Below, piece by piece: positions 20,419 to 43,590 of a stretch of DNA of 64,000 nucleotides. The stretch covers positions 6,045 to 70,044 of the forward strand of contig JAFVBZ010000048.1 in assembly GCA_017479645.1 (NCBI GenBank), in the 5' to 3' direction. The notes under the pieces are model-generated. The model was not told the origin of the DNA. It saw nothing but the letters and a program-made list of their open reading frames with translations, and did no database searches. The position numbers were made by a program, and so were the translations under genes. Every line of letters starts with the position of its first letter. Positions within the stretch are counted from its first letter, which is position 1. Source of the DNA: Ruminiclostridium sp. GTDB lineage: Bacteria; Bacillota; Clostridia; Oscillospirales; Ruminococcaceae.

Positions 20419-20466
20419 GTTAGCATCTGTTAACTTCATTATAGTATTTTCTCACTCAAATGTCAA
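20419..20466 (-). promoter_or_regulatory. Sigma-A promoter plus GTTAGY-family operator (copy 1)
   Basis: TTGACA-17-TATAAT (20466-20438), then 3 nt, then GTTAACAGATGCTAAC (20419-20434). Confidence 0.75.
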
Positions 20467-20477
20467 GGGATAATATC

Positions 20478-20522
20478 AGAAAACCGCAGATGCCTGATAT
20501 CTACACACATCTGCGGTTTTCT
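20478..20522. terminator. Terminator of the kinase/phosphatase operon
   Basis: AGAAAACCGCAGATG / CATCTGCGGTTTTCT perfect 15-bp stem. Confidence 0.75.
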
Positions 20523-20592
20523 CTCTGTTCAGTAACTGCACTTCCGCAAAGCCGTTCATGTCCGCGGAAAGCAGGGCGTCCTGACTGCCCTG

Positions 20593-21531
20593 TCACGGTA
20601 TCGGGTGAAGCGTATCTACCATTGAAAACAGCTTTCTCTTTGAGCTTCCGATAACCGGTTTCCGGAGAATATTCGGCACTGTCGGGGAGGTAGCGACACC
20701 TTTGATGAGTTTTATGAGGGAGTAGCCCTTGATTATACGGTTGATCTCGGCTGTCTCGCGGGGGTCATTTGTATCAAAGTAATGCCTTATAATGATATCC
20801 CAGAGCCTTGCGTACTGTTTTTTGGTGATATCCTGGCTTGTGGTTTTCCACTGGGCCTTTGCGGCAGTCACATATACAAGGTACATGGACGCAAGATCGA
20901 GTATCGGGTGTCCGAGTCCGGAATCGTCCACGTCAATAAGCACGATCTCGCCGTTCTGGAGCATAAGGTTGCCCGGGTGGAAATCCTGGTGGATACACGT
21001 ATTCCTGTACGGGATCTCATCTATCAGCTTGTAGAGCTTTTCGGCTTCCGCAGGTTTATAGAATCCGGCATCAGCCGTCATGCGCACTTCATTTCTGATC
21101 TTCTCTCTTGAATCCGGCAGCACGCCGTCCTTGAACTCCGTGTGATGAAGCTTTAATGCCATATCGGCGATCATGTGTCCGAATTCGTCGGTTTTATCGG
21201 GATTTGCTGCGATCTCCTGGCTGAATGACCGCGCATTTATCATCTCATACACGACGCCGTAATTCTCTCCGACACGCACCATATCAAATGCGATCATGGT
21301 AGGGATACCCTGTACAAAGGCGCTTCTGGTGGTTTCACGGTTCTGTCTGATTTTTTCCGGGCTGTTGCGTTTGCCGAAATACACCTTTACTATCGTCTCG
21401 TCGTCCAGACGATATACTGCGCCGTTTCCTCCCTTTCCGAGAAGCTCACAGCCTTCAACGGATATTTCGCGCATCGGCTTATCCTTCTTTGGTGCAGTGT
21501 CATTAACGGACTGATTAGTTGTATTGCTCAT
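20593..21531 (-). CDS. APH/choline-kinase-like phosphotransferase
   Basis: Gly-rich LGKGGNGAVY, catalytic HQDFHPGN, metal-binding LIDVDD. Confidence 0.85.
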   Translation of the reverse strand: MSNTTNQSVNDTAPKKDKPMREISVEGCELLGKGGNGAVYRLDDETIVKVYFGKRNSPEKIRQNRETTRSAFVQGIPTMIAFDMVRVGENYGVVYEMINARSFSQEIAANPDKTDEFGHMIADMALKLHHTEFKDGVLPDSREKIRNEVRMTADAGFYKPAEAEKLYKLIDEIPYRNTCIHQDFHPGNLMLQNGEIVLIDVDDSGLGHPILDLASMYLVYVTAAKAQWKTTSQDITKKQYARLWDIIIRHYFDTNDPRETAEINRIIKGYSLIKLIKGVATSPTVPNILRKPVIGSSKRKLFSMVDTLHPIP

Positions 21532-21558
21532 AATGCTCCTCCATTTAACGTTCGGTTG

Positions 21559-22494
21559 TCAGCTGTTCGCCGGGGCTTCCTTTGCCGATATGCGCTGCTG
21601 TATTATCGTGTTCGCAAGCGACAGCACAGTGCCGATCATTGCTCCCATAGATACATCGCTCAGATAATGCGCACCGAGTATCATTCTTGTCGTCATTATT
21701 ATGATGCCGAACATAACTCCCGACAGTGCAAGGGGGAAATACTTGCCTTTAAGCTTCGGAAACAGCCACATGAAAGACGGCAGTATGTACATTGCAGAAA
21801 CGCTCAGAATACTGTGACCGCTCGGGAATGACAAAAACTCGTCGGCATTGATGTCATACAGTTCCGCAAGTTCAGCTGAGCCCTCGAAAGGCGTGAACCA
21901 CGGCATAAAGCCGATTCCCTCATACCCCAGAACGACTGTACGGTACCTCGGGCGGTGGAATGTATGCTTAAGCACCTGCATAGCAAGGAACGCTGTCAGC
22001 AGTATTACAAAAAGCCAGATTATCCTCTGTGTAAGCAGCTTGTCCTCACTTTTCTTTGCAAAATGATAGCCAACAAAGAACAGCGGATATTCAAGCACCG
22101 CACTGACGATTAGGATCACCGGGATATTTCTGTTGATAGACGGAAACAGCATTCCGAAGCAGTTTCTGTCGCAAATGGAACCGCCGCCGATAAATCCGAT
22201 GCCCACCGCGAAAAGAACGCATATTGTACAGAGTATCACTTTCACAGCCTTGCCCTGTGAGGAATGCACCGCCCTCTCGTAAAGCGCGCCGGAGAAAAGC
22301 ATCGGCGCCGAAAAATACGGAATGAGTCCGGTAGATGTTATAACAGCAATAACGGGATTCCCCGGCGAAAACACTGTCCGGGCTACTGCCTCGTCAAAAA
22401 AAGTTCCGGTCACAAATAAAATTCCGAAAAACATCAGCATTATGATATTAAACAATATCTGACTTATATTATCTTTTTTCATGCTCTTACTCAT
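21559..22494 (-). CDS. PAP2-family integral membrane phosphatase
   Basis: KHTFHRPR, SFPSGH, TRMILGAHYLSD (all three PAP2 motifs). Confidence 0.9.
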   Translation of the reverse strand: MSKSMKKDNISQILFNIIMLMFFGILFVTGTFFDEAVARTVFSPGNPVIAVITSTGLIPYFSAPMLFSGALYERAVHSSQGKAVKVILCTICVLFAVGIGFIGGGSICDRNCFGMLFPSINRNIPVILIVSAVLEYPLFFVGYHFAKKSEDKLLTQRIIWLFVILLTAFLAMQVLKHTFHRPRYRTVVLGYEGIGFMPWFTPFEGSAELAELYDINADEFLSFPSGHSILSVSAMYILPSFMWLFPKLKGKYFPLALSGVMFGIIIMTTRMILGAHYLSDVSMGAMIGTVLSLANTIIQQRISAKEAPANS

Positions 22495-23335
22495 GGCACC
22501 CTCCGCACAGATATTTATTTCTCAGCTCTTTGATCTCCGGAGCGCCGACATTCAGCGCCTCGCGGAGATATCCCTCAATACTTCCGTATTTTTCGGTCAG
22601 TGTGTCAATTGCGTTTGTCATGTACCTCTCAACTACCGCGCCCGACATAAACAGAAGCGCGTCGAGCTTTTCCTGCGGCATCGGGTATGATGCAGTCTTC
22701 TGCTTTACCGCTTCGATCTGTGCAGCCTTATACCCGTTCGTAAGCATATAATCTTCAATTATCGTTTCACGGTCTGCTCCGAGCGCCGCCAGAAGCAACA
22801 TTGCCGCACAGCCTGTCCTGTCCTTGCCGTCGGTGCAGTGCCAGAGTACCGCACCCGTGTCCGGGTCATTTTCAAGCAGTATCCGAAAGAATTCGCGGTA
22901 GGCTTTCCTTCCCCGTTCTCCGAGAAGAAAGATAATGTACTGTTCCGGTCCGAGCATTCCCGCAGCATACGCCATCTCGAACAGCTTTATTCTGTCCCGG
23001 CTTTTATATTCATCGATCATCTTCTGATCAGCCTTAACCGGATAATCCTCCGTTTCTATCACGGGCAGGTGGATATTCCGCGCACCGGGTATTTCCGGAT
23101 CGGGGCCGGCATACCGCTCGCCTGTCATACGAAAGTCAATGACAGACTCCACTCTGAAATCGTTCCGAAGCTTATCTATAGTTTCCTGTGAAGCACCGCC
23201 GAGTCCGGCAGTCCGCAGCAGAACGCCCTTCTTTATTATCTTCCCGCCGACAGCGTAACCGCCCAACTCACGGGCATTCTCTATACCCGGAAGATCAATA
23301 GCCTGCTTTAACATAAACCGCTCCTTTCGGATCAA
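22487..23335 (-). CDS. CX5R protein-tyrosine/lipid phosphatase (MptpB/LipA-like family)
   Basis: NARELGG, VIDFR, HCTDGKDRTG, EDYMLTN. Confidence 0.9.
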   Translation of the reverse strand: MIRKERFMLKQAIDLPGIENARELGGYAVGGKIIKKGVLLRTAGLGGASQETIDKLRNDFRVESVIDFRMTGERYAGPDPEIPGARNIHLPVIETEDYPVKADQKMIDEYKSRDRIKLFEMAYAAGMLGPEQYIIFLLGERGRKAYREFFRILLENDPDTGAVLWHCTDGKDRTGCAAMLLLAALGADRETIIEDYMLTNGYKAAQIEAVKQKTASYPMPQEKLDALLFMSGAVVERYMTNAIDTLTEKYGSIEGYLREALNVGAPEIKELRNKYLCGGCHE

Positions 23336-23543
23336 AAAAAATAATACTCTTTAACTATTATATCACAAAATGCTTCAATAGACAAGAGAAAATACATTTT
23401 TTATCAAATCGGACACAAAGTTTTTATGACAGATGCCGTCTGACCCGACTGCAAAAGGAACGGTGCATGGTCTCCGGACAGACATACACCGTAAACTATT
23501 GCATTTTTCCGCATAATATGCTATAATTCTGTCAGAAGAAAAC

Positions 23544-24077
23544 ATGAAAAAGGGGGTGCCGGTCATAGAAGAGAAAAATGAAATAACAAGGAAGATCAGG
23601 AGATACCGCAATACTCTGTATATTACGGGTTCAGGCATATCCGCGCTCGGATTATGGAGCGCGCTGAGGCTCGTCCTTGGTCTTATGATCTCGCCGCAGA
23701 CCCTGCTCACGCCGGAAATTACAGAAAATATCTCCGGGATCGTCGGTGTGCTCGTTGTGCTTGTGGCATTTGCTCTGGTGATAGCTCCTTTGCTCGGCCT
23801 GTATCTGTTCGTCGGCAAGAAGGCTCGTGAAGAGGGTCTCGGAAAGAAGAAAAATTCCTTTTATATAGCGCTCATCGTACTGCTTGCATCGCTTCACATC
23901 TTCAGCATCATTTACTGCTTTATGGGGCTTATCGGAATAATTCCCTTCATGCAAGACAGTATTATCGGTCTTATAGTGTCAATGATCGTGGACGCAACCG
24001 CGGCGGTGACTCTTGGGGAAATGTGCATGTCAGCGGTGATGATACGGATTTACGAGAAAAAGAATACGGGTAATTGA
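23544..24077 (+). CDS. Membrane protein (about 4 TM)
   Basis: 177 aa hydrophobic; stop is 1 bp from the next ATG. Confidence 0.7.
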   Translation: MKKGVPVIEEKNEITRKIRRYRNTLYITGSGISALGLWSALRLVLGLMISPQTLLTPEITENISGIVGVLVVLVAFALVIAPLLGLYLFVGKKAREEGLGKKKNSFYIALIVLLASLHIFSIIYCFMGLIGIIPFMQDSIIGLIVSMIVDATAAVTLGEMCMSAVMIRIYEKKNTGN

Positions 24078-24078
24078 A

Positions 24079-25733: not shown

Positions 25734-25770
25734 AGAATTATGCGGTTTGCGATGACGAATAGAACTAATG

Positions 25771-25817
25771 AAAGGGCATATAACCTATGATTAAGTATAG
25801 GTTATATGCCCTTTTTT
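25771..25817. terminator. Bidirectional terminator
   Basis: AAAGGGCATATAACCTAT-8-ATAGGTTATATGCCCTTT, 18-bp stem plus T run. Confidence 0.85.
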
Positions 25818-25925
25818 ATGTTCTCTTGAAAAACATAATACCGAATATTATTTCTGCGCCCGCCGGCATCTTTTGCGGTATATCCGGACGGATTCACGCA
25901 TAGAAGCACATTGCCGTCATCAATT

Positions 25926-28561: not shown

Positions 28562-28936
28562 TTATCCCGCGTCAAGCGACCAAAGCGCGCTCAGCGTTTC
28601 CTGCAGCTCGTCGATCGTCATTCCGGCGATCTTAGCGGAACGTATCGCTTCGGTGAGATTTTCCTCGACACGCCTCATGTGCTGTTCCGCCAGCAGCCGC
28701 ATATCCTGCGCGTTCACAAAATAGCCCTTGCCCTGTGAGGCTGTCACAAGTCCCTCGTTCGCGAGTTCTTCATACGCCTTCATCGTAGTGATAACGCTTA
28801 TCTTCAGGTCCTGTGCAAGACCGCGTATCGACGGGAGCGCTTCGCCGCCCCTGAGCTTGCCGGAAAGTATGTCGTCCCTTAGCTGTGCGGCTATCTGCTT
28901 ATATATCGGTTCCGAGGAATTCTGATATATTTTCAT
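28562..28936 (-). CDS. GntR-family regulator, YtrA subfamily
   Basis: PIYKQIAAQL, LPSIRGLAQDLKISVITTMKAY, QGKGYFV; 124 aa; first gene of an ABC operon. Confidence 0.92.
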   Translation of the reverse strand: MKIYQNSSEPIYKQIAAQLRDDILSGKLRGGEALPSIRGLAQDLKISVITTMKAYEELANEGLVTASQGKGYFVNAQDMRLLAEQHMRRVEENLTEAIRSAKIAGMTIDELQETLSALWSLDAG

Positions 28937-29761: not shown

Positions 29762-30391
29762 TTATCGATGCCCCGTTCCTGCCCTGCTCAGATTCTGCCA
29801 CTCCGAAAGCGTTTCACTGACTTTCTCGTACCAGCCGTTTTCAAAAAATCGGCATTTTGTGATATCCTCGCCGCAGAAGTCCATGCGTTTCCCGGAGTAC
29901 AGCAAGCCCATAGCCCTGCAGCCGCCGGTGCAGTATTCAAACCATTTGCAGGAACCGCATTTGCTGTTGTTTGCGCGCACATCTCCTACTGTCGAACATA
30001 CATTATCGAGATATGCTCCCGATGACAGCAGGTCTTTAAGCCTGTCCCTGTGAAGATTTCCGAAATGTATGCCGAGCTGCATAAGCAGACCCGATTCCTG
30101 CATACACGGGACAATATCGCCGGAAGAAGTTACCGCTGCCATACCCCTGTTTCCTCTGCAGGCCGGATATGTACTGCGGTACTCTCCCTCGGAGCAGGCT
30201 GCGGGAACTATACTGAAGCTTCTGTTTTTGGGATAAAGCCGTAAAAACTGCCAGATGCCGATATCCATTTTCATACCGGTATGTATATACTCTTCCGCGA
30301 AGTCCAGCAGCTTCTCGTAGTACTCCTCAAATCCAAGGCATGCGTCCCCTGCATTCGCAAACCAGCGCGGCACTTCTGTATGAACACTCAT
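29762..30391 (-). pseudogene. 5'-truncated radical SAM/SPASM gene (SPASM half only)
   Basis: CRGNRG...SGDIVPC...CGSCKWFEYCTGGCR SPASM motif; no CxxxCxxC radical SAM core; ATG overlaps the upstream stop. Confidence 0.7.
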
Positions 30392-31047
30392 CAGCCCGCA
30401 ACAGTTCCCGCGGCTGTCAGAACTATCGCAAACAGCGAAAATCCTATACCGATAGAACCGCCGATCTTTAATCCGAGTCTTTGCAGCGGAACTAATACGA
30501 GCGCTGCGGTCACGGGATTGAGCAGCACCATTGCTGCCGGCACATTCAGAGCACCGGTGAGTATCGCCGCAATAACAAGTCCTGTCGATACTGCGATCAG
30601 ACTTACCGCGCTGATCAACGACGGTATCTTCGGGTACTTCCCTACCGCATCCAATGCGGTCTGTGCATCGTCGTCGGAGATCTTTCCGGCAAGCCTGCGA
30701 TAGACAATGCACTTTGTTACGATCGATCCGTGATAGTAAAGTCCGGTGTATGCACCTATGAATGTATTGATCTTAAGCGCAAGTGCAAGTCCGGTATTGT
30801 TCTGTCCGATGAGCTCCGCAAGAAACCACATCGTTAGATATGTTCCCGGCTGTCCTATGCAGGAAAGCCAGAAAGATCTGTCAAACCGGCTTTCCTTCAC
30901 TTCCGTCCACCACGGCGAGATCTTTCCGAGACTTCGTGGATCCGATCTGTCGCCCTTGCGTCCGGACCACACGAGCGGTATGTCTGCTCTTGCGCAGAGT
31001 ATCCCGCTTATAACGCCGATTATACCGATGATAATATATACGTTCAT
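30391..31047 (-). CDS. Polytopic membrane protein (DUF6796-like), paralog 1
   Basis: 218 aa; GVISGILCARAD and IGAYTGLYYH motifs shared with the other two paralogs. Confidence 0.75.
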   Translation of the reverse strand: MNVYIIIGIIGVISGILCARADIPLVWSGRKGDRSDPRSLGKISPWWTEVKESRFDRSFWLSCIGQPGTYLTMWFLAELIGQNNTGLALALKINTFIGAYTGLYYHGSIVTKCIVYRRLAGKISDDDAQTALDAVGKYPKIPSLISAVSLIAVSTGLVIAAILTGALNVPAAMVLLNPVTAALVLVPLQRLGLKIGGSIGIGFSLFAIVLTAAGTVAG

Positions 31048-31742
31048 TTTTCGACAGTCCCTTTCTTATGATAAAAATATGCGGTAAGGAATATCAGCCC
31101 TTCCCCGAGACTTTCACAAGCGCCGTAAGCCCCCTCGGCGGCAGTTCCCGCAAAGATCAGTTTCCACAGAATGCCGAGGGCGAATGCTCCCACAGGACCC
31201 ACAAGGCAGAGCCACCTCGGAAGCTTTGATCTTCCGGAAACCGTAACATAGAAATGCAGCACATAGCCTATACACAGAAAACCGATCAGGACTATGTTCG
31301 GCACAGTGACAAATTCAGACCAGCGCTGTGCGGCATTCGCGGCAAGCTCTGCCGTACCGCCTTCCGAAAGCACGGATCTATATGTCAGCGGCATAAGCGA
31401 ACCCAGCGAAAAATGCAGATACCCGGTAGATGCAACGCCGATGAGATACAGCGTTGCAAGCATCCTGCAGGCTTTTCCGCAGCTGTCCGCGATCATACGG
31501 TAAACGCTGATCCCGGCAGGCAGCATAAGCGCCATACCGATAAATCCGAGTATCGCAGAAAGTACGAACCGCCACTCCGGCATCTGCGCCCAAAGCGGCT
31601 GTACGCCAGATGCGCCGAGCCCTTCATAGCAGAAGATCAGACAGTCCCCGGTCATAAACAGCACTCCGCCGATCACTCCGAGAAGAGCGTATTTTTTCAG
31701 CTTTTGGGCTGTAAATTGCATCGGCATCACTTCATTATCCAT
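31044..31742 (-). CDS. Polytopic membrane protein (DUF6796-like), paralog 2
   Basis: 232 aa; GVIGGVLFMTGD and IGVASTGYLH. Confidence 0.8.
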   Translation of the reverse strand: MDNEVMPMQFTAQKLKKYALLGVIGGVLFMTGDCLIFCYEGLGASGVQPLWAQMPEWRFVLSAILGFIGMALMLPAGISVYRMIADSCGKACRMLATLYLIGVASTGYLHFSLGSLMPLTYRSVLSEGGTAELAANAAQRWSEFVTVPNIVLIGFLCIGYVLHFYVTVSGRSKLPRWLCLVGPVGAFALGILWKLIFAGTAAEGAYGACESLGEGLIFLTAYFYHKKGTVEK

Positions 31743-32638
31743 TCGATTATCTCCTTTTCCGCACGGGCAAAGTATTCAAGGTTCTCTTTCCGGTGCTTTC
31801 CGAAAGTCTTGTACATTATCCCGATAAGCGGCATTATCCGGTACAGCTTTTTCTCACGTTCCGGGTTCGGAAGCAGTCCGCACAGATGACTTCCGTGCGG
31901 AAATATCAGCGATTTTACTTCGTGCTCATATCCGATATTTTGCAGATGTTCTTCTGTCTTTCTGACGGAATAGACCGAGTTCCAGTCCTCGTCCTCCGCA
32001 CCGGCTATCATGAGTATGCGGGCATTCGTTTTTTCCGGGCGGAGCATTGCGCGCTGTTCCGCTTCCTTGTCGTCATAGGCTTTCTGAAAAGCCGCCCACA
32101 TTCCTGTGACCTTGTACTGCATACCGGGAATCTTTTTGTATTTTATGACCTTTTCCTTTGAGAAATCCGGACGCACGAACGGTATCTCCCTGCCCTGCCA
32201 TACCGCAACGCTGTGACCTGACATTGTCTTTTTGTCCGGCATCGTTCCCTCAAACGGAACGTGGGTGGGTGAGACAATAATAAGGTTCTCAAACCCTCCT
32301 ATGTACTGCGCAGTCAGAGATGCGAATATCGAGCCCATTGACTGACCGTAAACGCTGAGATGCCTGATGCCTTTTTTATTGCGCAGATATTCTACTGCCG
32401 GGACGAACATATCCACCGGAACTCTGTCGGGAGAATCCGGCAGTCCCTCCGCACCGAACAGCGAAACTGCCAGACCGGTAATACCGAAATCGGCAAACCT
32501 TTCCGCAAAAACTATTCCGGGCAGTAAGCTCTGCTCACCGCCCATTATCACGATAACAGCACGGTCACTGCCGTTATCCGGCTCGGCGAGATGCCCCACA
32601 AAGCCGTGCTCTTTCATATTGAAGTTTTCATGTTTCAT
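31727..32638 (-). CDS. BAAT/acyl-CoA thioesterase-like alpha/beta hydrolase (paralog of 19450-20367)
   Basis: GQSMGS, AGAEDEDW, HGSHL. Confidence 0.85.
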   Translation of the reverse strand: MKHENFNMKEHGFVGHLAEPDNGSDRAVIVIMGGEQSLLPGIVFAERFADFGITGLAVSLFGAEGLPDSPDRVPVDMFVPAVEYLRNKKGIRHLSVYGQSMGSIFASLTAQYIGGFENLIIVSPTHVPFEGTMPDKKTMSGHSVAVWQGREIPFVRPDFSKEKVIKYKKIPGMQYKVTGMWAAFQKAYDDKEAEQRAMLRPEKTNARILMIAGAEDEDWNSVYSVRKTEEHLQNIGYEHEVKSLIFPHGSHLCGLLPNPEREKKLYRIMPLIGIMYKTFGKHRKENLEYFARAEKEIIEWIMK

Positions 32639-32653
32639 ATCTGTATCTCCGTT

Positions 32654-33286
32654 TCAGATGCTCTTGCTTCTTTCCCACCCGTCGCCTGCGTCTGTGCTGT
32701 GTCTGATAAAGTCAAAATCACAGCAGTCTCCGCCCTGACAGAGTGTTTTTGTCCGCTTGAAATCCGTAAAAGGCAGTTCACCGAAATTAATAACGTCGGA
32801 ATGGCAGAACATGGCTCCCAGCTTCATAAGATCATGTTTTTCAAAGATATGGCGGTAAACGCACTCCCTGCACTCGAAATGGAATCTGTCCTTAGGGTCA
32901 TCGGAATGCCATTCGTAGTGCCAGCCTGCGCCGGAACCATGTCTGAATCCGAACGGGAGTATCTTCTTCATCATCGGAATGAAGAACGGGAGCTTCGCCA
33001 TTTTTTTATAGCTTTCCGGAGTGAGCATTTTCCACATCTCCTCCGATACTGTCCTGTATGCTTCTTCCTCACTTTTCCCGTGATCCTGCAAGACCTCGTA
33101 CAATGCAATGGAAGTGAATATCTGCGCCATGTGTTTGTAATTGCCCTTGTCGCAGTACTCCGAGTGTTCCATGATAAGTTCGTCAATTCTTTTGCAGATG
33201 TCCTGCTGTATATCGTCCGGCAGTGACGGGAAGTATTTGCGGTAGCGGCTTATTCCGATCAAAGCCATTGGTTCATACTTTTTCAT
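32654..33286 (-). CDS. L-2-amino-thiazoline-4-carboxylate hydrolase-family protein
   Basis: FECRECVY...FCHSD...FKRTKTLCQGGDCCDF C-terminal pattern. Confidence 0.8.
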   Translation of the reverse strand: MKKYEPMALIGISRYRKYFPSLPDDIQQDICKRIDELIMEHSEYCDKGNYKHMAQIFTSIALYEVLQDHGKSEEEAYRTVSEEMWKMLTPESYKKMAKLPFFIPMMKKILPFGFRHGSGAGWHYEWHSDDPKDRFHFECRECVYRHIFEKHDLMKLGAMFCHSDVINFGELPFTDFKRTKTLCQGGDCCDFDFIRHSTDAGDGWERSKSI

Positions 33287-33304: not shown

Positions 33305-33352
33305 GTTAGTTTTAACTAACTGCATTATAGCATAATTCCGCAAATAAATCAA
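33305..33352 (-). promoter_or_regulatory. Sigma-A promoter plus GTTAGY operator (copy 2)
   Basis: TTGATT-17-TATAAT, then 3 nt, then operator (GTTAGTTTTAACTAAC on + strand, 33305-33320). Confidence 0.8.
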
Positions 33353-33462: not shown

Positions 33463-33516
33463 TTGACAAATGTCGGTGAACGTTGTATACTTATACTCAT
33501 TGGTGAACAACGTTCA
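33463..33516 (+). promoter_or_regulatory. tetR promoter with two TGAAC-N3-GTTCA-type operators
   Basis: TTGACA-17-TATACT (33463-33491); TGAACAACGTTCA at 33504-33516; 11/13 copy at 33477-33489. Confidence 0.75.
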
Positions 33517-33559
33517 TTAAATATCTTTGTTCACAATTCCTGCTGAAAGGGGTCAGTTT

Positions 33560-34162
33560 ATGCCGAGAGATAAGACAAAAAGCCACGAAAGAATAATCGA
33601 GGCGGCAAAAAAGGAGTTCCTCGAATACGGCTATGCTGATGCTTCCCTGCGGCGGATCGCAGCGGATGCGGAAATACAGGTAGGCGGGCTGTATAAGCAT
33701 TTTGCCAGCAAGGACGAGATGTTTGAAACGCTTGTGGAGCCTGCGATACAGGAATTCTACGCTCTGTATCACGATATTGAGAATGAATATTTTGGTGATG
33801 CAAAAGCCTCTGCGTGGGAGCCGAAACGTGAAGTCACGCGCACTATGGAGCTTATCTACAGGCACTATGACGAGTTCCGGCTGCTTATACTTAGATCTAA
33901 GGGAACACGGTATGAGGACTTCAAGCATGAGGTAGCCCTGCTGGAGGAAAAAGCCACACTGCGCTATCTCGATGAACTGCGAAAACAAGGCTGTCCGGTC
34001 AAAGATGTGGACAGAACCGAATTTCACCTGATAACCACATCTTATGTGGAGGCTTTTTTCCAGCCGCTTATACACGGTCTTGACAAGGAAAAAGCCATGC
34101 ATTACACAAGAACTCTTGAAGAGTTTTACCAACCGGCATGGAAGTCGTGGTTAGGAATATGA
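33560..34162 (+). CDS. TetR/AcrR-family regulator
   Basis: IIEAAKKEFLEYGYADASLRRIAADAEIQVGGLYKHFASKDEMF HTH. Confidence 0.93.
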   Translation: MPRDKTKSHERIIEAAKKEFLEYGYADASLRRIAADAEIQVGGLYKHFASKDEMFETLVEPAIQEFYALYHDIENEYFGDAKASAWEPKREVTRTMELIYRHYDEFRLLILRSKGTRYEDFKHEVALLEEKATLRYLDELRKQGCPVKDVDRTEFHLITTSYVEAFFQPLIHGLDKEKAMHYTRTLEEFYQPAWKSWLGI

Positions 34163-34206
34163 AATAATGCCTCGCGATTGCAGCGGGGCATAAATAAAGA
34201 ACAAAA

Positions 34207-34222
34207 GTTAGCTTTAGCTAAC
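34207..34222. promoter_or_regulatory. GTTAGY operator (copy 3)
   Basis: GTTAGCTTTAGCTAAC, perfect 7-bp arms, 22 bp upstream of the ABC ATG. Confidence 0.8.
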
Positions 34223-34244: not shown

Positions 34245-36035
34245 ATGGAGAAAAAGAAACAAAGTGCCGTGGGAGTCTTGCTCGGATATGCAGGAAACTA
34301 TAAGGGACTTACATTTTTGGGGCTGTTTTTGTCAGCTGTGTCAATGATACTTGGGATGCTGCCGTATATATGCATCTGGCTTGTTGTAAGAGATCTGATA
34401 GCAGTCGCACCAAATTGGAAAGAGGCAACCGATATCGCGGGATACGGCTGGCTGGCGTTTTTCTTTGCGGTAGGCGGAATAGCGGTATATTTCGCAGCGC
34501 TTATGTGTACGCATCTGGCAGCGTTCAGAACAGCGTCCAACATAAGAAAAAAGGGAATGGCGCATCTTATGAAGGCGCCATTGGGATTTTTTGACAGCAA
34601 TGCATCGGGTTTGCTTCGCAACAGACTTGACGGAGCGGCGACAGATACAGAGACACTGCTCGCACATAATCTTGCGGATATTGTTGGAACCGCAGCAATG
34701 TTTGTTATGATGCTGGTACTTATGTTTGTATTTGACTGGAGAATGGGGCTGTCGTGCCTTCTGGCTGCGATAATATCGATCATAGCCATGTTCTCCATGA
34801 TGGGCGGGAAAAACGCAGGTCTCATGGCAGAGTATCAGGCGGCTTTGGATACGATGAGCAAAGCGGGAACAGAGTATGTCAGGGGTATTCCCGTAGTAAA
34901 AGTATTTCAGCAGACAGTATATTCATTTAAAGCTTTCAAGCAGGCTATTGAGGATTACAGTGAAAAGGCGGAGCATTATCAGGCTGATGTATGCAAAGTG
35001 CCCCAAGCTGTAAACCTGACATTTACGGAAGGGGCATTTATATTCCTTGTTCCGGCAGTCCTTTTGCTTGCACCGTCGGCGTTAGACGGGGATTTTGCCG
35101 GTTTTGTCACTAATTTTGCATTTTATGCGGTTTTTTCCGCAATCGTCTCCACTGCGCTCGCAAAGATAATGTTTGCTGCAAGCGGAATGATGCTGGCTCA
35201 GACCGCCCTCGGAAGAATAGATCAGGTCATGAGTGCGCCTGTCCTTACGACAGCAAGCAGCCCCGAGACTCCCGAAGGAAACGGGATAGAATTCAAAGAT
35301 GTCAGCTTCACGTATGAAGGCAGTGAAAGTCCTGCGCTTTCCCATGTAAGCTTTAAGGCGGAGCCCGGTCAGACTGTGGCGCTTGTGGGACCGTCCGGCG
35401 GCGGAAAGACTACGGCGGCGAGCCTTATCCCGAGATTCTGGGACGTATCGGACGGAAGCGTACTTGTCGGCGGAGTGGACGTAAAGAAAATTGATCCGCA
35501 TGTCCTCATGGAAAGAATAGCCTTTGTATTTCAGAATAACAGGCTGTTCAAAACTACTGTCCTGGAAAATGTCCGTGCCGCAAGACCCGATGCAAGTGAA
35601 GCGGAAGTTATGGAGGCGCTCAGAGCGGCACAGTGTATGGATATCATAGATAAACTTCCGGAAGGGATCCATACAAAGATCGGTACAGAGGGAACATATC
35701 TGTCGGGCGGTGAGCAGCAGAGAATTTCCCTTGCACGCGCCATTTTAAAAGATGCACCGATCGTTGTTCTCGATGAAGCCACAGCTTTTGCCGATCCCGA
35801 AAATGAAGCATTGATACAGAAAGCCTTTACCACTCTCACCAAGGGACGAACGGTGATAATGATCGCTCATCGTCTTTCCACTGTCGTGAATGCGGATAAG
35901 ATCATTGTTTTGAATAACGGACAAGTTGAAGAAGTCGGTACACATAGCGAGCTGTTAAATAATAAGGGTCTGTATGATCGTATGTGGAACGATTATAACA
36001 AGGCTGCTCAATGGAAGTTAGGAGGGAATGTATAA
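34245..36035 (+). CDS. Fused TMD-NBD ABC half-transporter (YbtP/IrtA-like, no reductase domain)
   Basis: THLAAF, EYVRGIPVVKVF, GPSGGGKT, LSGGEQQR, LDEAT. Confidence 0.9.
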   Translation: MEKKKQSAVGVLLGYAGNYKGLTFLGLFLSAVSMILGMLPYICIWLVVRDLIAVAPNWKEATDIAGYGWLAFFFAVGGIAVYFAALMCTHLAAFRTASNIRKKGMAHLMKAPLGFFDSNASGLLRNRLDGAATDTETLLAHNLADIVGTAAMFVMMLVLMFVFDWRMGLSCLLAAIISIIAMFSMMGGKNAGLMAEYQAALDTMSKAGTEYVRGIPVVKVFQQTVYSFKAFKQAIEDYSEKAEHYQADVCKVPQAVNLTFTEGAFIFLVPAVLLLAPSALDGDFAGFVTNFAFYAVFSAIVSTALAKIMFAASGMMLAQTALGRIDQVMSAPVLTTASSPETPEGNGIEFKDVSFTYEGSESPALSHVSFKAEPGQTVALVGPSGGGKTTAASLIPRFWDVSDGSVLVGGVDVKKIDPHVLMERIAFVFQNNRLFKTTVLENVRAARPDASEAEVMEALRAAQCMDIIDKLPEGIHTKIGTEGTYLSGGEQQRISLARAILKDAPIVVLDEATAFADPENEALIQKAFTTLTKGRTVIMIAHRLSTVVNADKIIVLNNGQVEEVGTHSELLNNKGLYDRMWNDYNKAAQWKLGGNV

Positions 36036-37777
36036 TGTTCGGCGAAAAATTTAAACATAAATATGCATTGTCTGATACAGGAATAAAAAATGTCAAAAAA
36101 GGCACCTTCTGGACTGTGATCGTAAATCTTGTCGTCATGGGCGGTATGGGAATACTATACTTTCTGATGATGGGATTTATGAAAACTCTTACAGACGGAG
36201 AACAATTACCGGGGATAGGTTTATTCCTTGTTCTTGTAGCCGTTTTTCTTATTCTCTCTCTTATTACCCATATCCAGCAGTATAAAGCTACATACGGACT
36301 TGTGTACGGAGAAGTGAAAAAGGTGCGGCTAAAGATCGCTGAGCATTTAAGAAAACTGCCTTTGGGATACTTCGGCAAAAGGGATCTCGCAGATCTTACC
36401 GAGACCGTTATGGGTGATGTAAACCGCCTTGAGCATGTCTGGTCTCACTGTCTTGGGTATTTATACGGCTCCTATATATCTACGGCTGTCATAGCAATAG
36501 GTCTGTTCATATACGACTGGCGTCTTGCACTTGCCTGCCTCTGGGGCGTTCCGGTAGCTTTCGGACTGTTATTCGGAAGCAGAAAGCTTGCAAAAAAACA
36601 ATCCGAGATCACCAAAAAGGCATCAGTAGTCGTATCGGACGGAATACAGGAAACACTTGAAAATATCCGTGAGATCAGAGCCACAAACCAGGAAGAAAAG
36701 TATCTGTCGGAACTGTATGAAAAGATCGATTCACATGAGAAGGCCCTTAAAACAGGAGAACTTACAACCGGTATCTTTGTAAATGCTGCAAGCGTGATAA
36801 TGAGACTTGGTGTCGCTACAACGATCCTTACCGGTGCAGAACTGATACTTTCGGGAAGCATTGATTTTATGCTGTTCTTCATGTTCCTGCTCGTTATTAC
36901 CCGCGTTTACGCGCCATTTGACCAGAGCCTTGCGCTTATTGCCGAGATGTTTGTGTCTCAGGTGTCGGCAAACAGACTCAACGAAATATATGATGCCGAA
37001 ACAGCAGAAGGAACGGAAAGCTTTTCACCCGACGGGCATGATATCGTGTTTAAGAACGTGGGCTTCAAGTATGATGAAGAAACAGTGCTTAAAGGCGTAA
37101 GCTTTACAGCAAAAGAAGGCGAGGTAACGGCGCTTGTCGGTCCTTCGGGATCGGGAAAGAGTACCTGTGCAAGACTCGCGGCAAGACTGTGGGATGTAAG
37201 CGAGGGCGCTATCGAAGTCGGAGGAGTGGATATATCCACTGTTGATCCGGAAGTGCTTCTTACGGATTATTCCTTTGTATTCCAGGATGTAGTCCTTTTC
37301 GATGATACTGTTATGGAAAACATACGTCTCGGAAAGCACGGGGCAACAGATGAAGAGGTAATAACTGCTGCAAGAGCGGCAAACTGCGAGGAATTTGTCG
37401 AAAAGCTTCCCGACGGATACAATACTTCTATCGGAGAAAACGGTGCAAAGCTCTCCGGCGGAGAAAGGCAGAGGATCTCAATTGCGAGGGCTTTGCTTAA
37501 GAATGCGCCTATTGTTCTTCTTGATGAGGCAACAGCTTCACTTGATGTTGAGAATGAAACAAAGGTACAGGGAGCATTGTCGCGCCTTCTCGCCGGAAAG
37601 ACTGTACTTGTTATCGCACATCGCATGCGCACGGTAGAGGCTGCGGACAAGATCGTCGTTCTTACGGACGGCGCGGTGGCAGAGGAAGGAAGACCTGAGG
37701 AACTTCTTGCCGGAGAGAACAGCATATTCAGACGTATGGCGGGACTCCAGTCGGAAAACTATGGTTGGAGCGTGTGA
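36035..37777 (+). CDS. Fused TMD-NBD ABC half-transporter (YbtQ/IrtB-like)
   Basis: HLRKLPLGYFGKRDLADLT, GPSGSGKS, LSGGERQR; TAATG overlap with its partner. Confidence 0.9.
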   Translation: MFGEKFKHKYALSDTGIKNVKKGTFWTVIVNLVVMGGMGILYFLMMGFMKTLTDGEQLPGIGLFLVLVAVFLILSLITHIQQYKATYGLVYGEVKKVRLKIAEHLRKLPLGYFGKRDLADLTETVMGDVNRLEHVWSHCLGYLYGSYISTAVIAIGLFIYDWRLALACLWGVPVAFGLLFGSRKLAKKQSEITKKASVVVSDGIQETLENIREIRATNQEEKYLSELYEKIDSHEKALKTGELTTGIFVNAASVIMRLGVATTILTGAELILSGSIDFMLFFMFLLVITRVYAPFDQSLALIAEMFVSQVSANRLNEIYDAETAEGTESFSPDGHDIVFKNVGFKYDEETVLKGVSFTAKEGEVTALVGPSGSGKSTCARLAARLWDVSEGAIEVGGVDISTVDPEVLLTDYSFVFQDVVLFDDTVMENIRLGKHGATDEEVITAARAANCEEFVEKLPDGYNTSIGENGAKLSGGERQRISIARALLKNAPIVLLDEATASLDVENETKVQGALSRLLAGKTVLVIAHRMRTVEAADKIVVLTDGAVAEEGRPEELLAGENSIFRRMAGLQSENYGWSV

Positions 37778-38133
37778 CAGTCATCAGTATAAAGAGATTT
37801 TATATGCTGTAAGCCAGATTATTAAGGTTATGGTGTCCCGGAATGTTTGCCTGTTCCACGGCATGATCGACAAACTTGTGAAAGACCTGACTTCTGCATA
37901 TTAATGGTATTTATGCGTTGCTCCGGAACAGGCAGCAGGAAGCGGGAAAGCGGAAGCTGTGACAAATGCGTACTCAATAACTGCGCTTAAAGCAGTTAAT
38001 GGCTTTTCTTACAAGAGAACTGCATAAACCTTTTTCAAATATATTGAAATATCAGACCACACCGAGATATAAACCACTTGCAATTGCTTTGTTATTGTGA
38101 TATAATGTTCATATTGCAAAAGGGGGCAGGCTT

Positions 38134-39564: not shown

Positions 39565-39633
39565 GCGGTATGGATCACATGAATACCGCTGCGGTTCACA
39601 GTTGTGACCGAAAAGTACAGATCAGAACAGCTC

Positions 39634-40305
39634 TTACTTTATGATCATCACCGTGAGATAACCGCAATCAGTTATATCGTCTATGTGACGGTACAGCTTT
39701 TGTTCGGGAAATCCGCAGTTCTCCGCAGCAAATACAGTCTCCCTGCCGGACAGCATTTCCTTTATCTCTGACAGCTTGCTGCCGCTTTTCATTATAACTC
39801 GGGTCCCGCCCATTCCGAGCATATCCCGCGCAGCTTCGTGCTGTGCGGGTATTATTGTAAGCGGTTCGCTGCCATCCGAAAGCGGGATATTCAGTTCCGC
39901 GGCTGCCGCACAGAAGCTCGGTACTCCCGCGCACATCTTTGTTTCAAATCCCATTTTCACAAGCTCGGCGGCTATGTATGTACACGATGAATAAAGCGAT
40001 ACATCGCCGATGCTAAGCATTGCGATATCCTGTCCGTTTCCGAGATAAACGGCAAGCTGCTCAGCGATACGGCAGTGATTTTCGTGCTGTGCGGTACTGT
40101 CCTGTTTCATCGGAAAATCCAGCGGTATGACAGTTTTTCCGGTCATATCAACGATCTGTCCGGCAATGGAAAGCGCGATCATATTTCCGCTTTTTGTTCT
40201 GGGTGCGGCTATCACCGGACATTCTTTTATAATGCGTACAGCTTTCAATGTTAACAGTTCCGGATCACCCGGTCCCGCACTTACTCCGTAAAATGTTCCG
40301 GGCAT
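39634..40305 (-). CDS. cbiL: Precorrin-2 / cobalt-factor II C20-methyltransferase
   Basis: GVSAGPGDPELLTLKA, LDFPM, IGDVSLYSS, GVPSFCAAAA. Confidence 0.88.
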   Translation of the reverse strand: MPGTFYGVSAGPGDPELLTLKAVRIIKECPVIAAPRTKSGNMIALSIAGQIVDMTGKTVIPLDFPMKQDSTAQHENHCRIAEQLAVYLGNGQDIAMLSIGDVSLYSSCTYIAAELVKMGFETKMCAGVPSFCAAAAELNIPLSDGSEPLTIIPAQHEAARDMLGMGGTRVIMKSGSKLSEIKEMLSGRETVFAAENCGFPEQKLYRHIDDITDCGYLTVMIIK

Positions 40306-40388
40306 ATAAAACCTCGTTTCTTTTTATATATCGCCATAGCTTCAATTAATCATACCGGTAAGTCTCATTGTCTTTCTTACAGGATACG

Positions 40389-41168
40389 TCAGTCTTTCTG
40401 CTTTATCTCAACGCACTTTTCAAACTCCCCGAACCATTTCTCCGGATAGAAGAACAGCAGCTCCTCATGTCCATAATCCTGCTCTCTGATGTCGGGAGAA
40501 GCAAAATGCTTCAGATAACGTTCCCTATATTTCTCGCCCATTTTAAGCGCATAAAAAATGTGGACTGTGGTATTTTCGGCTGAGATATGCTCGCCGAGCG
40601 GAGTCACAAGGTCGGAGAAGAACTGATTTTTCAAGCTTGTCTTTGAAACAGCCTTCGCTGACCCGAACATTCCGTTTGTCATCTGCAAGTATTTCTCCGT
40701 GGCTTCATCACCCATTTTCTTCCGGGTCATATTCTCCGCCCATTTCGGCATAGTACCCTTCTGCACCATTCCATAAAACACTTTGCCGACAATGGCTGTC
40801 TGAAGCTTTGCAGACAGCTTTCCGCTCTGATCGAGATCGGAGCTTCCGATGATCGCGTGGCTGATATGCACATTTCCGCGCTCAACGAGCAGACCCGCAA
40901 AACTGCCGCCGAGAGACGAACCGTAAAGCGCAAACACCTCTCCCCCACAGCGTTTGGTGATGTAGCTCTCGATCTTACGGCAGATGTAGGTCATGTTAGT
41001 GAAATCACCCTCATTGCCGTCAAATCCGTCGTAGTCAACGCATATCACCTTGTATTTTTCCGCAAGCATCGGCACGACTTTTTCAAAATTTAATTTTGCC
41101 GTGCAGCAGGTTCCCGGCAGCAGCATTACGATCTTTTCGTTATCTTTTCCCGCAATAGTGTATCTCAT
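40389..41168 (-). CDS. Alpha/beta hydrolase
   Basis: LLPG, YGSSLGG nucleophile elbow, GHEE. Confidence 0.85.
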   Translation of the reverse strand: MRYTIAGKDNEKIVMLLPGTCCTAKLNFEKVVPMLAEKYKVICVDYDGFDGNEGDFTNMTYICRKIESYITKRCGGEVFALYGSSLGGSFAGLLVERGNVHISHAIIGSSDLDQSGKLSAKLQTAIVGKVFYGMVQKGTMPKWAENMTRKKMGDEATEKYLQMTNGMFGSAKAVSKTSLKNQFFSDLVTPLGEHISAENTTVHIFYALKMGEKYRERYLKHFASPDIREQDYGHEELLFFYPEKWFGEFEKCVEIKQKD

Positions 41169-41178
41169 TTTTTCTCTC

Positions 41179-41532
41179 CTATTTCTTCACGGCTCTGAAA
41201 TAGACCATTGAGCCTCTGATATGCCAGTTTGTGACTTCGTATGCACTCTCAAGGCGCTTCATCAGCATACCCGATGTATCGAACGGCGGCGTGAACCAGC
41301 CCTTTCGTGCAAGCACATTCTTTACAAGCGCATCGGTTACTTTCGATCGACCTTTGATGTAAAAACAGGCGACAAGCTTCCCGCCTTTTTTCAGCACCCG
41401 TGTCATCTCGGAGAATGCCCTGTCCTTGTCGGGGAAAGCATGAAAGCCGTTCATACTCAATACCGTGTCGAAGGTGCAGTCCCCGAACGGCAATTCCCCC
41501 ACATCACCCTGCATGAAAGTAATGTTGTTTAT
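41179..41532 (-). pseudogene. Class I SAM methyltransferase, N-terminal half missing
   Basis: INNITFMQGDVGELPF...FDTVLSMNGFHAFPD...RVLKKGG; no motif I (DxxxGxG). Confidence 0.75.
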
Positions 41533-41577
41533 AACAGCACCATTCCTATGAGTGTCAGGATCATCGTAACAAGCACG

Positions 41578-42270
41578 TCATGCACTTCCCTTCTTTGTTT
41601 TCAGTTCATACACGAGCATCACCGCAAACCAGATGATCATGCTTTCGCTCATCAGACCGTTGTTGAATGCAAGTCTGAATGCGCCGTCCGGCATGAACAG
41701 CGTTATGCCTTTAAGCAGTCCGAAAAATATCAGCACATTCGTAAATGCAAAAGGTTTCGGGAAAGCGGTAAAACCCCGCACCTGCAAATAAAACCAGTAC
41801 ACGAACACCGGAAGCATGAATGCTTCGCTTGCGGCTATCACCCACGATGTGTTCTCGTACAACAGCAAACATATCGCTCTGATATCGTGCAGATCATAGC
41901 CGAAGTCCGGGCTCTGCGAAAGTCCGCTGTAAAGCACAAGTATCATTATGTAGTAAAGGTGCAGCGCCAGCCACGGCGTAAGACCGAAAGCATTCAGATA
42001 GTGATACACTTTCCGGCGCTTTTCATCTGTGATATAATTCTGCACCGCGAACAGCGCAATACCATAAAGAATTATACCCGGAAAAGCAAGCGCCATTGCG
42101 AGCGTGAACCTCCACTGTGGGATCTGCGCGGTTCCTGTTGTGAGCCAGTTCAGCATATAAACAGTATCATATTCCCCGCCGCCGTACATCATCAGCCAGT
42201 CACCCGTGCCGAAACACAGACAGCCGAGCATTCCGCAGATCAGCGCCGCGGCTGTTTTCTTACTTGTCAT
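41578..42270 (-). CDS. Polytopic membrane protein (DUF6796-like), paralog 3
   Basis: 230 aa; GMLGCLCFGTGD and FGLTPWLALH. Confidence 0.8.
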   Translation of the reverse strand: MTSKKTAAALICGMLGCLCFGTGDWLMMYGGGEYDTVYMLNWLTTGTAQIPQWRFTLAMALAFPGIILYGIALFAVQNYITDEKRRKVYHYLNAFGLTPWLALHLYYIMILVLYSGLSQSPDFGYDLHDIRAICLLLYENTSWVIAASEAFMLPVFVYWFYLQVRGFTAFPKPFAFTNVLIFFGLLKGITLFMPDGAFRLAFNNGLMSESMIIWFAVMLVYELKTKKGSA

Positions 42271-43234
42271 ATATCTTATGCACCTCTTCCCAATCCGGCA
42301 TCGCAGCTCTCATTCCGTCCCACACCGGCATTCTGTATTCCGGTGCGGCATCGCGCAGCTTGTTGAACTCACGGTCAAGGTACTCCATTTCGGTCACGGC
42401 ATTCCTGCAATGGTCGGTGGCCGCCAGCTCCCCAACAAAGGTTTTTGCCATTGCACGAAGCGCCAGATTGGTTGCTGTCATTTTAGCTCCGCTCTCAAAG
42501 TATGTCTCATCTCCGGCAGGACATATCTTTATCCCCGCTCTTTTTATCAGACCGTAGGCTTCCTTTGCTGCAGCGGTGATATTGTTCACCTCCTGCTTTG
42601 ATGCTGTACGAAGGTTACAGCCCCGCTTGTAGCTCAGATAAACTATCGGCAGAATAAATGCGGCATGGCAGTACAGCCAGCCCTCCATGTCGTCCATGAA
42701 CCCGATTCCGTATTTCGAGCCGGAAAGCGCTGTCCGCAGCGCAGTTTCGTCCCGTGTGGACGGGAGAGTATGCAGCCCGCCGACAACAAGCCTGCTGCTG
42801 CCCCACCTTACACAGATCGTGTGATTGCCCTCGCGCACGCCGCCGGTACCCTGAAATCCGAACAGCAGGGTCTTGTCATCACCCGCAAGACGGTGAAATT
42901 CACGCTCGGTATCTGCTGCGCAAAGATTATTTCCCACAAGCACAAACAGTGGAGCGTTCACCTTGGCGATCACCGGCAGGAGCGCAGTCTGCTGCTGTCC
43001 CTGCATTATCGAAAACACGATGTCATAGCGTTCGTTTTCGTCCGCTTTCCCAATGACTTTCGGACGGTCGATCGTTTTCTTTTTTTGCAGCTTATGCTTT
43101 ATGCGAAGCCCGTATTTTCCCAGTATTTTTCGTGTTCTTCCCCGTGCGCAGACAGTCACGTCATTTCCCGCACGACACAGAACGTGTGTCAGATATGAGC
43201 CTATGACTCCGCAGCCGTAAACAAGAATCTTCAT
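42260..43234 (-). CDS. Ketopantoate reductase-family oxidoreductase
   Basis: VYGCGVIGS Rossmann motif, ARG, WLYCHAAF. Confidence 0.85.
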   Translation of the reverse strand: MKILVYGCGVIGSYLTHVLCRAGNDVTVCARGRTRKILGKYGLRIKHKLQKKKTIDRPKVIGKADENERYDIVFSIMQGQQQTALLPVIAKVNAPLFVLVGNNLCAADTEREFHRLAGDDKTLLFGFQGTGGVREGNHTICVRWGSSRLVVGGLHTLPSTRDETALRTALSGSKYGIGFMDDMEGWLYCHAAFILPIVYLSYKRGCNLRTASKQEVNNITAAAKEAYGLIKRAGIKICPAGDETYFESGAKMTATNLALRAMAKTFVGELAATDHCRNAVTEMEYLDREFNKLRDAAPEYRMPVWDGMRAAMPDWEEVHKIYDK

Positions 43235-43251
43235 ACGTTTATCCTCCGTTC

Positions 43252-43303
43252 GTTAGCTCCAGCTAACTTTATTTATAATAGCACATTGCCATCTCTTTGT
43301 CAA
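43252..43303 (-). promoter_or_regulatory. Sigma-A promoter plus GTTAGY operator (copy 4)
   Basis: TTGACA-17-TATTAT on the minus strand, then GTTAGCTCCAGCTAAC (43252-43267). Confidence 0.8.
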
Positions 43304-43529
43304 TATATTAATGAAAAAACCAACATCTTAGCCGTGCCGGCCCGGACACTCATGGTTTCGGGCATTTATAGAAGATCCCGTCACGATATCTGCCCTTGTC
43401 CAAATGAACTTTCCGGGCGGCATGGTATTCCTTCCCGTTTCCCGCATCGTACCGCTTCTCGTACTATTATGCCGGATTGTCAATGCTTTCATGATAATTT
43501 TCTGTTACAATGATATGACAGTAAAACTA

Positions 43530-43590
43530 TTGACTTTTTTACAAAGCTGTGTATAACAGAGCGGAGTTAGCCTCAGCTAACACAAGGAGG
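43530..43590 (+). promoter_or_regulatory. Orphan promoter, GTTAGY operator (copy 5) and RBS with no following ORF
   Basis: TTGACT-16-TATAAC (43530-43557), GTTAGCCTCAGCTAAC (43566-43581), AAGGAGG (43584-43590), no start codon at RBS distance. Confidence 0.7.

Follow-up and report, generated by a model that had tools for sequence, protein, structure and literature searches.

The DNA analysed here, called the window throughout, is a stretch of 64,000 nucleotides (nt) from a Ruminiclostridium genome (C136:6045-70044, within a 3.31-Mb assembly of 275 contigs). It contains genes for alpha/beta hydrolases, DUF6796 proteins, an ATC_hydrolase-family protein, an ApbA-like reductase, a TetR-family regulator and a heterodimeric ATP-binding cassette (ABC) transporter. 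Distributed among them are five copies of a short palindrome, which we will call the box. We consider it likely, from sequence comparison, that the box is the operator of a two-domain, metal-dependent repressor of the DtxR family, encoded elsewhere in the genome (C174), and that it regulates an iron-starvation regulon. What we observe is where the sites lie relative to promoters, that they are conserved and that they occur together with the regulator gene; the identity of the binding protein, the metal to which it responds and its action as a repressor are inferred.

Five boxes in the window

The window was searched with a strict pattern, GTTAGY-N4-RYTAAC (GTTAGYNNNNRYTAAC), and with a loose one, GTTA-N8-TAAC. 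The strict pattern matches at five positions only (20419, 33305, 34207, 43252 and 43566), with 0.02 matches expected from 100 dinucleotide shuffles. The loose pattern finds the same five, with 0.5 expected. The consensus is R-GTTAGY-N4-RCTAAC-Y, a 16-bp palindrome with a 6-4-6 layout, whose flanks show a purine/pyrimidine (R/Y) preference only (99 distinct strict sites). CIRCE/HrcA and SlyA-type boxes, which contain TTAGC, were considered and rejected on spacing.

An earlier reading of the same DNA (the original prediction) had described these five palindromes, all of which are present. It had placed four of them within about 10 nt after a -10 hexamer, two exactly 3 nt after TATAAT, and the fifth before the ABC pair. 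The flanks agree with this, and the list of downstream genes that it gave is matched by Pfam. Boxes 1, 2, 4 and 5 overlap the predicted transcription start of strong sigma-70-type promoters. Inspection of the flank of box 3 revealed no recognisable -10 hexamer upstream of it. The coordinates of the boxes, of their promoters and of the neighbouring genes, together with the box targets on other contigs, are collected in Table 1.

Table 1. Boxes, genes and other features of the window, with box targets and the candidate regulator elsewhere in the genome (aa, amino acids; SAM, S-adenosylmethionine)
Feature	Position	Strand	Details	Basis
Box 1, GTTAGCATCTGTTAAC	20419-20434		Promoter on minus strand: TTGACA (20461-20466), 17 nt, TATAAT (20438-20443), 3 nt, box	
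Box 2, GTTAGTTTTAACTAAC	33305-33320		Promoter on minus strand: TTGATT, 17 nt, TATAAT (33352-33324), 3 nt, box	
Box 3, GTTAGCTTTAGCTAAC	34207-34222	plus	45 nt past TetR stop codon, 22 nt ahead of ABC start codon	
Box 4, GTTAGCTCCAGCTAAC	43252-43267		Promoter on minus strand: TTGACA (43298-43303), 17 nt, TATTAT (43275-43280), 7 nt, box	
Box 5, GTTAGCCTCAGCTAAC	43566-43581	plus	TTGACT (43530-43535), 16 nt, TATAAC (43552-43557), 8 nt, box, AAGGAGG (43584-43590)	
BAAT_C-type alpha/beta hydrolase	19450-20367	minus	305 aa; target of box 1	Pfam
Operon behind box 2	29762-33286	minus		Pfam, NCBIfam
ATC_hydrolase-family protein	32654-33286	minus	Box 2 operon	Pfam
BAAT_C hydrolase	31727-32638	minus	Box 2 operon	Pfam
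DUF6796	31044-31742	minus	Box 2 operon	Pfam
DUF6796	30391-31047	minus	Box 2 operon	Pfam
SPASM-domain remnant	29762 to about 30390	minus	Box 2 operon; lacks the radical-SAM core	
TetR promoter	33463-33491	plus	TTGACA (33463-33468), 17 nt, TATACT (33486-33491)	
TGAAC-N3-GTTCA palindrome, TGAACAACGTTCA	33504-33516		Just downstream of the TetR promoter hexamers	
TetR-family regulator	33527-34162	plus		Pfam
Hairpin	34167-34191		9 bp, GC-rich	
Heterodimeric ABC half-transporter pair	34245-37777	plus	596 + 588 aa, each ABC_membrane and ABC_tran	Pfam
Operon behind box 4	40389-43234	minus		Pfam, NCBIfam
ApbA-like reductase	42260-43234	minus	Box 4 operon	
DUF6796	41578-42270	minus	Box 4 operon	
Methyltransferase fragment	41179-41514	minus	Box 4 operon; C-terminal half	
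Alpha/beta hydrolase	40389-41168	minus	Box 4 operon	
CbiL-like methylase	39634-40305		May or may not belong to box 4 operon	
Multi-hairpin repeat element	43623-43896	plus	About 270 bp, seven consecutive hairpins, fold z-score -16.8	
DUF2325-DUF3793-flavodoxin operon	C69		Box target	
FTR1-family iron permease and ZIP transporter	C113		Common intergenic region with four box-like sites	
MacB-type ABC system	C30		Box target	
Two further alpha/beta hydrolases	C31, C189		Box targets	
Three SAM methyltransferase genes	C30, C97, C200		Box targets	
HGSNAT-type acyltransferase	C152		Box target	
DtxR-family regulator	C174:18104-18475		123 aa; adjoins relA/spoT-like gene	Pfam

The box in this genome

The motif is not confined to the 23 kb over which the original prediction saw the pathway spread. 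The genome contains 11 strict sites, of which five are in the window and the rest elsewhere, and all 11 lie between genes. Seven of them are perfect copies of GTTAGC-N4-GCTAAC, with about 0.2 expected from base composition. A weight matrix derived from the sites gives about 20 good matches in the genome.

The expected bias towards promoters is found genome-wide. In 12 of the 18 sites examined the box begins 0-10 nt after a -10 hexamer, which is separated by a 17-nt spacer from a -35 hexamer, often a perfect TTGACA. A box at this distance covers the expected transcription start, the classic position for a repressor. The regulon extends to at least 18 promoter regions on 11 contigs.

A further perfect box (GTTAGCTAGCGCTAAC, C273:4832) is located 164 nt upstream of NuoE/NuoF-like genes, without the usual promoter geometry. 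These genes encode iron-sulfur subunits, probably of a hydrogenase or similar complex, and their box could represent iron-sparing control or chance.

The box in related genomes

We examined 41 related genomes of the same genus and order (Oscillospirales), in which genes were identified as crude open-reading-frame calls. The box is present in 36 of these, with 125 sites compared with 20 for a reversed control pattern. It precedes feoA/feoB (L001-L005, L007, L011 and others), DUF2325, DUF3793 followed by a flavodoxin gene (L006, L010) and a ZIP transporter gene (L009), and the boxes often form a tandem pair about 34 bp apart. At three loci (L002, L004 and L011) the divergent neighbour of the box is a gene for a regulator of the DtxR/MntR family.

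Box and regulator occur together (Fisher p=0.0036 across the 41 relatives). Boxes are found in 35 of the 37 genomes with the regulator. The four relatives that lack it have strict box counts of 0, 0, 0 and 1, and the lone site is inside a coding region (L012).

A search of public genomes with the DtxR homolog of this genome gave 80 loci, all from Oscillospirales-type rumen or gut assemblies, including a 100% match in 'Ruminococcaceae bacterium UBA3215'. At 15 of the 80, the stretch shared by the regulator gene and a divergent feoA-feoA-feoB operon contains one to three boxes, at 150-560 bp upstream of the regulator. In total, these regulator loci include 24 sites in 454 kb, with about 0.24 expected.

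Orthologs of the window genes also follow boxes in relatives. The box is directly upstream of a BAAT-like hydrolase gene (53% identity; G017, L113) and upstream of genes for DUF6796 (47%; G017, L112) and the ApbA-like reductase (85%; G002, L114). Pairs of DUF6796 and ATC_hydrolase genes lie behind boxes in G019 and G008 (L108, L110), with 22-27% identity to the window proteins. G008 in addition has the arrangement TetR-box-ABC-ABC in the same order as the window (L107, 49-53% protein identity), and G019 has an island of its own with five boxes in 10 kb.

On three metagenomic scaffolds (L146-L148, positions 1-12000) a single cluster of 15 genes lies behind two boxes; its ATC-like homolog is 73% identical. 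The cluster starts with Abhydrolase_3, DUF6796, two ABC genes, two methyltransferase genes and ATC_hydrolase. Further on, with other genes in between, come a methyltransferase, then DUF6796 and ATC_hydrolase, then another DUF6796. In all, there are three to four copies of DUF6796, three of the methyltransferase and two to three of ATC_hydrolase, as well as several proteins of 160-170 aa without a Pfam match. The promoter reads TATAAT, 1 nt, GTAAGCGTAGACTAAC, and the second box, GTTAGCCATATCTAAC, is 27 nt before the first start codon. Families that are scattered in our genome are therefore joined in one box-controlled operon elsewhere, and this is the best support for the idea that they serve one pathway.

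The box is at or just after the predicted transcription start and would fold, with a stem of 6 bp and a loop of 4 nt. It might then act as RNA, a 5' hairpin that stabilises transcripts or binds a protein. We find this hardly credible in view of the variation among the sites. The weaker copies GTTAGCTAAAGCAAAC, GTTAGCAAAATCTAAC and GTTAGGCTTTGCTAAC differ on one side only, which breaks the pairing with no compensating change, and positions 6 and 11 are mismatched or form a wobble (C/A or T/G) in 29 of the 99 distinct strict sites. It is the sequence of the stem that is conserved and not just its ability to pair. Moreover, the box may follow the -10 hexamer by anything from 0 to 10 nt, and some copies lie upstream of promoters or in tandem in divergent regions.

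A candidate regulator

The original prediction attributed the five boxes to one repressor. The overlap with transcription starts, the conservation of the box before orthologs and the one-sided mismatches all favour this, and the most likely repressor is encoded outside the window. One gene in the window other than that for TetR was considered as a source of the binding protein: a GntR/YtrA-like gene (28562-28936), which was rejected as it has no box nearby.

The genome has exactly one DtxR-family gene. Its product matches both PF01325, the N-terminal winged-helix DNA-binding domain (40.6 bits, cut-off 26), and PF02742, the dimerisation and metal-binding domain (57.6 bits, cut-off 27), and its best matches among solved structures are DtxR, MntR and IdeR. 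Residues M9, C100, E103 and H104 align with the primary-site residues M10, C102, E105 and H106 of DtxR. All 79 readable orthologs retain the Met and the C-x2-E-H motif. Met10 and Cys102 are credited with the selectivity for Fe(II) over Mn(II), and MntR has Asp/Asn and Glu at these positions (reviewed in PMC11672702).

Other metal-related genes bear on the signal. A single Fur-family gene is present (C169:4512-7076), followed by two genes for CobW/COG0523-type GTPases; it probably encodes Zur. No NRAMP gene was found in the genome, and the one gene for a TroA/ZnuA-type binding protein is not preceded by a box. With the IdeR-type ligands of the DtxR-family protein, the Zur-like Fur, the absence of NRAMP and the boxless TroA/ZnuA-type protein, iron becomes the most likely signal. 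The original prediction had named iron limitation as one of three conditions; the DtxR-family gene now makes it the likely one.

The same protein and operator could instead respond to manganese, or to manganese and iron together, as an MntR-type rather than an IdeR-type switch. The two-domain architecture is that of MntR, the 6-4-6 layout and the AGC-N4-GCT core are those of the enterobacterial MntR box AACATAGCnnnnGCTATGTT (PMC1698941), DtxR-family proteins with a dual Mn/Fe response are known (PMC3327659), and a ZIP transporter is among the targets. We nevertheless judge a manganese switch unlikely: the ligands are Met and Cys, as in IdeR, and not Asp and Glu, as in MntR; the targets are feoAB, flavodoxin, FTR1 and the YbtPQ-like pair; and, as noted, this genome has neither an NRAMP gene nor a box at its only TroA/ZnuA-type gene.

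Box 3 and the TetR gene

The only good plus-strand promoter ahead of box 3 is that of the TetR gene. A different palindrome, TGAAC-N3-GTTCA, follows its hexamers and is probably the operator of the TetR protein itself. The sequence GTGAACGTT lies between the two hexamers.

If another regulator bound the box, with the DtxR link a coincidence, this TetR protein would be the natural candidate. TetR genes do adjoin boxes at three loci (the window, L107 and L104). The possibility seems very remote, as the protein has another palindrome at its own promoter. In addition, most boxes both here and in relatives have no TetR gene nearby, and the distribution of the box among genomes follows that of the DtxR gene, in whose divergent promoter region it occurs at the 15 loci described above. 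The window TetR was therefore rejected as the box-binding protein, and the DtxR-family protein is the best candidate.

Immediately after the TetR stop codon there is a hairpin, which ends 17 nt before box 3. A terminator was sought in this interval: the hairpin has no T tail, and the orthologous locus of G008 has no hairpin. Box 3 probably serves either to stop read-through of transcription or to cover a weak promoter within the unit. In the simplest reading, the ABC genes would be read through from the TetR promoter and a repressor bound at box 3 would act as a roadblock. With such a roadblock inside a TetR-ABC unit, the transporter would be expressed only when the TetR ligand is present and iron is low.

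Box 5 and a repeat element

The promoter at box 5 drives no gene. Its ribosome-binding site leads directly into a repeat element that is present in many copies. Neither a start codon nor a gene comes after box 5 and its perfect AAGGAGG, and the plus strand has no open frame of more than 46 codons up to the promoter of a sulfate-transporter gene near 44650. Some congeners carry up to 37 copies of the repeat and this genome about 30, but only 14 of 61 genomes of the genus have it. It looks like a mobile element of the miniature inverted-repeat transposable element (MITE) type, and it is outside the regulon. At L103 of G002, too, a copy directly follows a box-bearing promoter and separates it from a lactate-dehydrogenase-like gene. 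Insertion of the element just after the box and ribosome-binding site explains the missing gene, and promoter 5 is thus an orphan whose gene has been lost or displaced.

Two other roles for box 5 were considered and rejected. One was control of the SBP_bac_11 gene at 44842 as part of a ferric-iron ABC system. This gene has a separate promoter near 44650, with a short leader peptide and without a box, and it is a member of a sulfate-assimilation operon. The other was an iron-repressed small RNA in the seven-hairpin region; this block is a repeat with tens of copies. Rfam finds nothing in the window.

Genes behind the boxes

NCBIfam shows that the SPASM and methyltransferase frames are what is left of truncated genes. 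As members of operons under box control they suggest, along with the orphan state of promoter 5, that gene decay in the island is ongoing.

The BAAT-like, ATC-like and DUF6796 proteins received no name from NCBIfam, and none of them matches a solved structure in sequence. Conservation of the ATC_hydrolase-family protein is unusually high, and many of its 947 homologs show about 70% identity. Residues C142, C161, D164, D187, C189 and D190 never vary, and C139, H162 and C183 are retained in 90% or more of the sequences. With its structural model (predicted local distance difference test, pLDDT, 91) a fold search finds only weak similarity, to H-NOX and V4R/MopR ligand-binding domains (E=5e-3 at best, TM-scores 0.37-0.40). 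The protein may be a metal- or cofactor-binder rather than a plain hydrolase. The DUF6796 model is all-helical and membrane-embedded (pLDDT 90), and a fold search with it returned no significant match among solved structures. Here the invariant residues are G22, D33, R58, G69, G102, H110 and G170.

When compared with bacterial solved structures, the first ABC half-transporter scores best with YbtP (313 bits), followed by IrtA (272) and MsbA (257), and the second with YbtQ (267), followed by YbtP (248) and TM288 (247); the margins are modest, and these are bit scores and not a tree.

A proposed regulon of iron starvation

We propose that an Fe(II)-bound dimer of the DtxR-family protein would sit on the box, over the transcription start, and block RNA polymerase. 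With iron shortage the repressor would leave the box and the promoters would fire. In the window this would place four working units under box control: the hydrolase of box 1, the box 2 operon, the ABC pair and the box 4 operon. They would be a share of a genome-wide iron-starvation regulon that includes the flavodoxin operon, the FTR1-type permease, the ZIP transporter, the MacB-type ABC system and additional hydrolases and methyltransferases.

A number of observations count against this proposal. First, between one and three of the 11 strict sites could be due to chance, and those on C212 and C273 are without the promoter geometry. Second, this genome has no box upstream of feoAB, which is the core target in relatives, and the regulator gene here neither has a box of its own nor adjoins one. 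Two of the regulator-bearing genomes are without a strict box: G011, which is 81% complete, and G025, whose regulator is only 41% identical. Hydrolases and methyltransferases are also unusual as members of an iron regulon. The protein itself differs from the classical form. It ends at residue 123, without the SH3-like C-terminal domain, and of the ancillary site only the equivalent of His79 (H78) is kept, Glu83 being replaced by Thr and His98 by Ser. With the ancillary site and the SH3 domain missing, activation may work differently. Finally, the metal specificity is deduced from four ligand residues and the kind of target genes, and DtxR itself responds to several metals in vitro (PMC11672702).

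The feoA-feoB genes of this genome are fused (811 aa) and overlap the end of a gene for a 951-aa FtsX-type permease, and they come after a gene for a MacA-like adaptor (C203:3266-9756).

The original prediction also assigned all the genes of the island to one uptake-and-processing pathway. The occurrence of the same families in one box-controlled operon elsewhere is in its favour, but the regulon as such is genome-wide and order-wide. The uptake-and-processing role is a hypothesis, which is helped by the resemblance of the ABC pair to YbtPQ. It is possible, although we would not count on it, that the box-controlled genes constitute an unrecognised iron-acquisition pathway of anaerobic gut and rumen Clostridia. 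Its members would then be the YbtPQ-like ABC pair, DUF6796, the Cys-rich ATC-like protein, alpha/beta hydrolases including the BAAT-like ones, SAM methyltransferases and the ApbA-like reductase. Such a pathway might import and break down foreign metallophores, possibly of the thiazoline type. Alternatively, it might make and recycle the cell's own metallophore.

Iron control is essentially undescribed in the Oscillospirales of the gut and rumen, which are abundant and mostly uncultured. A search of the available literature library returned no paper linking DtxR-family regulators to these taxa and none mentioning DUF6796. If our proposal is correct, the box provides a simple sequence tag for predicting genes that respond to iron shortage throughout the order. 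It also provides a testable condition, iron starvation, for families that at present have no known role (DUF6796, ATC_hydrolase, the BAAT-like hydrolases and the ApbA-like reductase) and attaches the same condition to a YbtPQ-like transporter in a strict anaerobe.

Comparison with known systems

In Firmicutes, the Fur regulons respond to iron starvation by inducing ferrous iron uptake and flavodoxin as a substitute for ferredoxin. The regulon proposed here would be a functional analogue, with a different family of regulator and a different box.

The ABC pair may be compared with YbtPQ and IrtAB, which have an exporter fold but import siderophores (yersiniabactin and mycobactin, respectively). 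Like these, it consists of two half-transporters and is predicted to be iron-regulated. In contrast to them, it has no outer-membrane receptor, no siderophore synthesis genes and no IrtA-like siderophore-interaction domain, and its ATC_hydrolase-family, DUF6796 and BAAT-like neighbours are absent from the Yersinia and mycobacterial systems.

DtxR and IdeR of Corynebacterium and Mycobacterium recognise a 19-bp iron box with the consensus TTAGGTTAGCCTAACCTAA, which binds two dimers. The regulator described here belongs to the same family (PF01325 and PF02742) and has the same primary ligands (Met, Cys, Glu and His). The logic that we propose is also the same: the repressor would occupy the promoter when iron is plentiful, and the targets would be those of iron uptake. 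The box shares the half-site pentamer TTAG[G/C] with the 19-bp box (PMC524172, PMC1382209). However, the latter is an overlapping double palindrome, whereas the sites here are single 6-4-6 palindromes of 16-18 bp. The protein is shorter, at 123 aa without the SH3-like third domain, and has Thr and Ser in place of the ancillary Glu83 and His98. Its host, unlike the actinobacterial hosts of DtxR and IdeR, is a member of the Oscillospirales, a strict anaerobe with low-GC DNA. Given the missing SH3 domain and ancillary site, we have filed it as a variant of the family and not as an IdeR ortholog.

MntR of Escherichia coli and Bacillus subtilis is a two-domain protein like this regulator, and the enterobacterial box, AACATAGCnnnnGCTATGTT, has the same 4-nt spacer and AGC-N4-GCT core (PMC1698941). 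On the other hand, MntR has Asp and Glu where the regulator has Met and Cys, and it controls mntH and sitABCD, while the targets here are feoAB, flavodoxin, FTR1 and the YbtPQ-like pair, in a genome without an NRAMP gene. Taken together, the regulator has the size of MntR, the ligands of IdeR and an iron-type regulon. It would thus be a minimal form, with iron-type ligands on an MntR-sized scaffold and an MntR-style operator, and could be useful for studying how metal selectivity and operator choice have evolved in this family.

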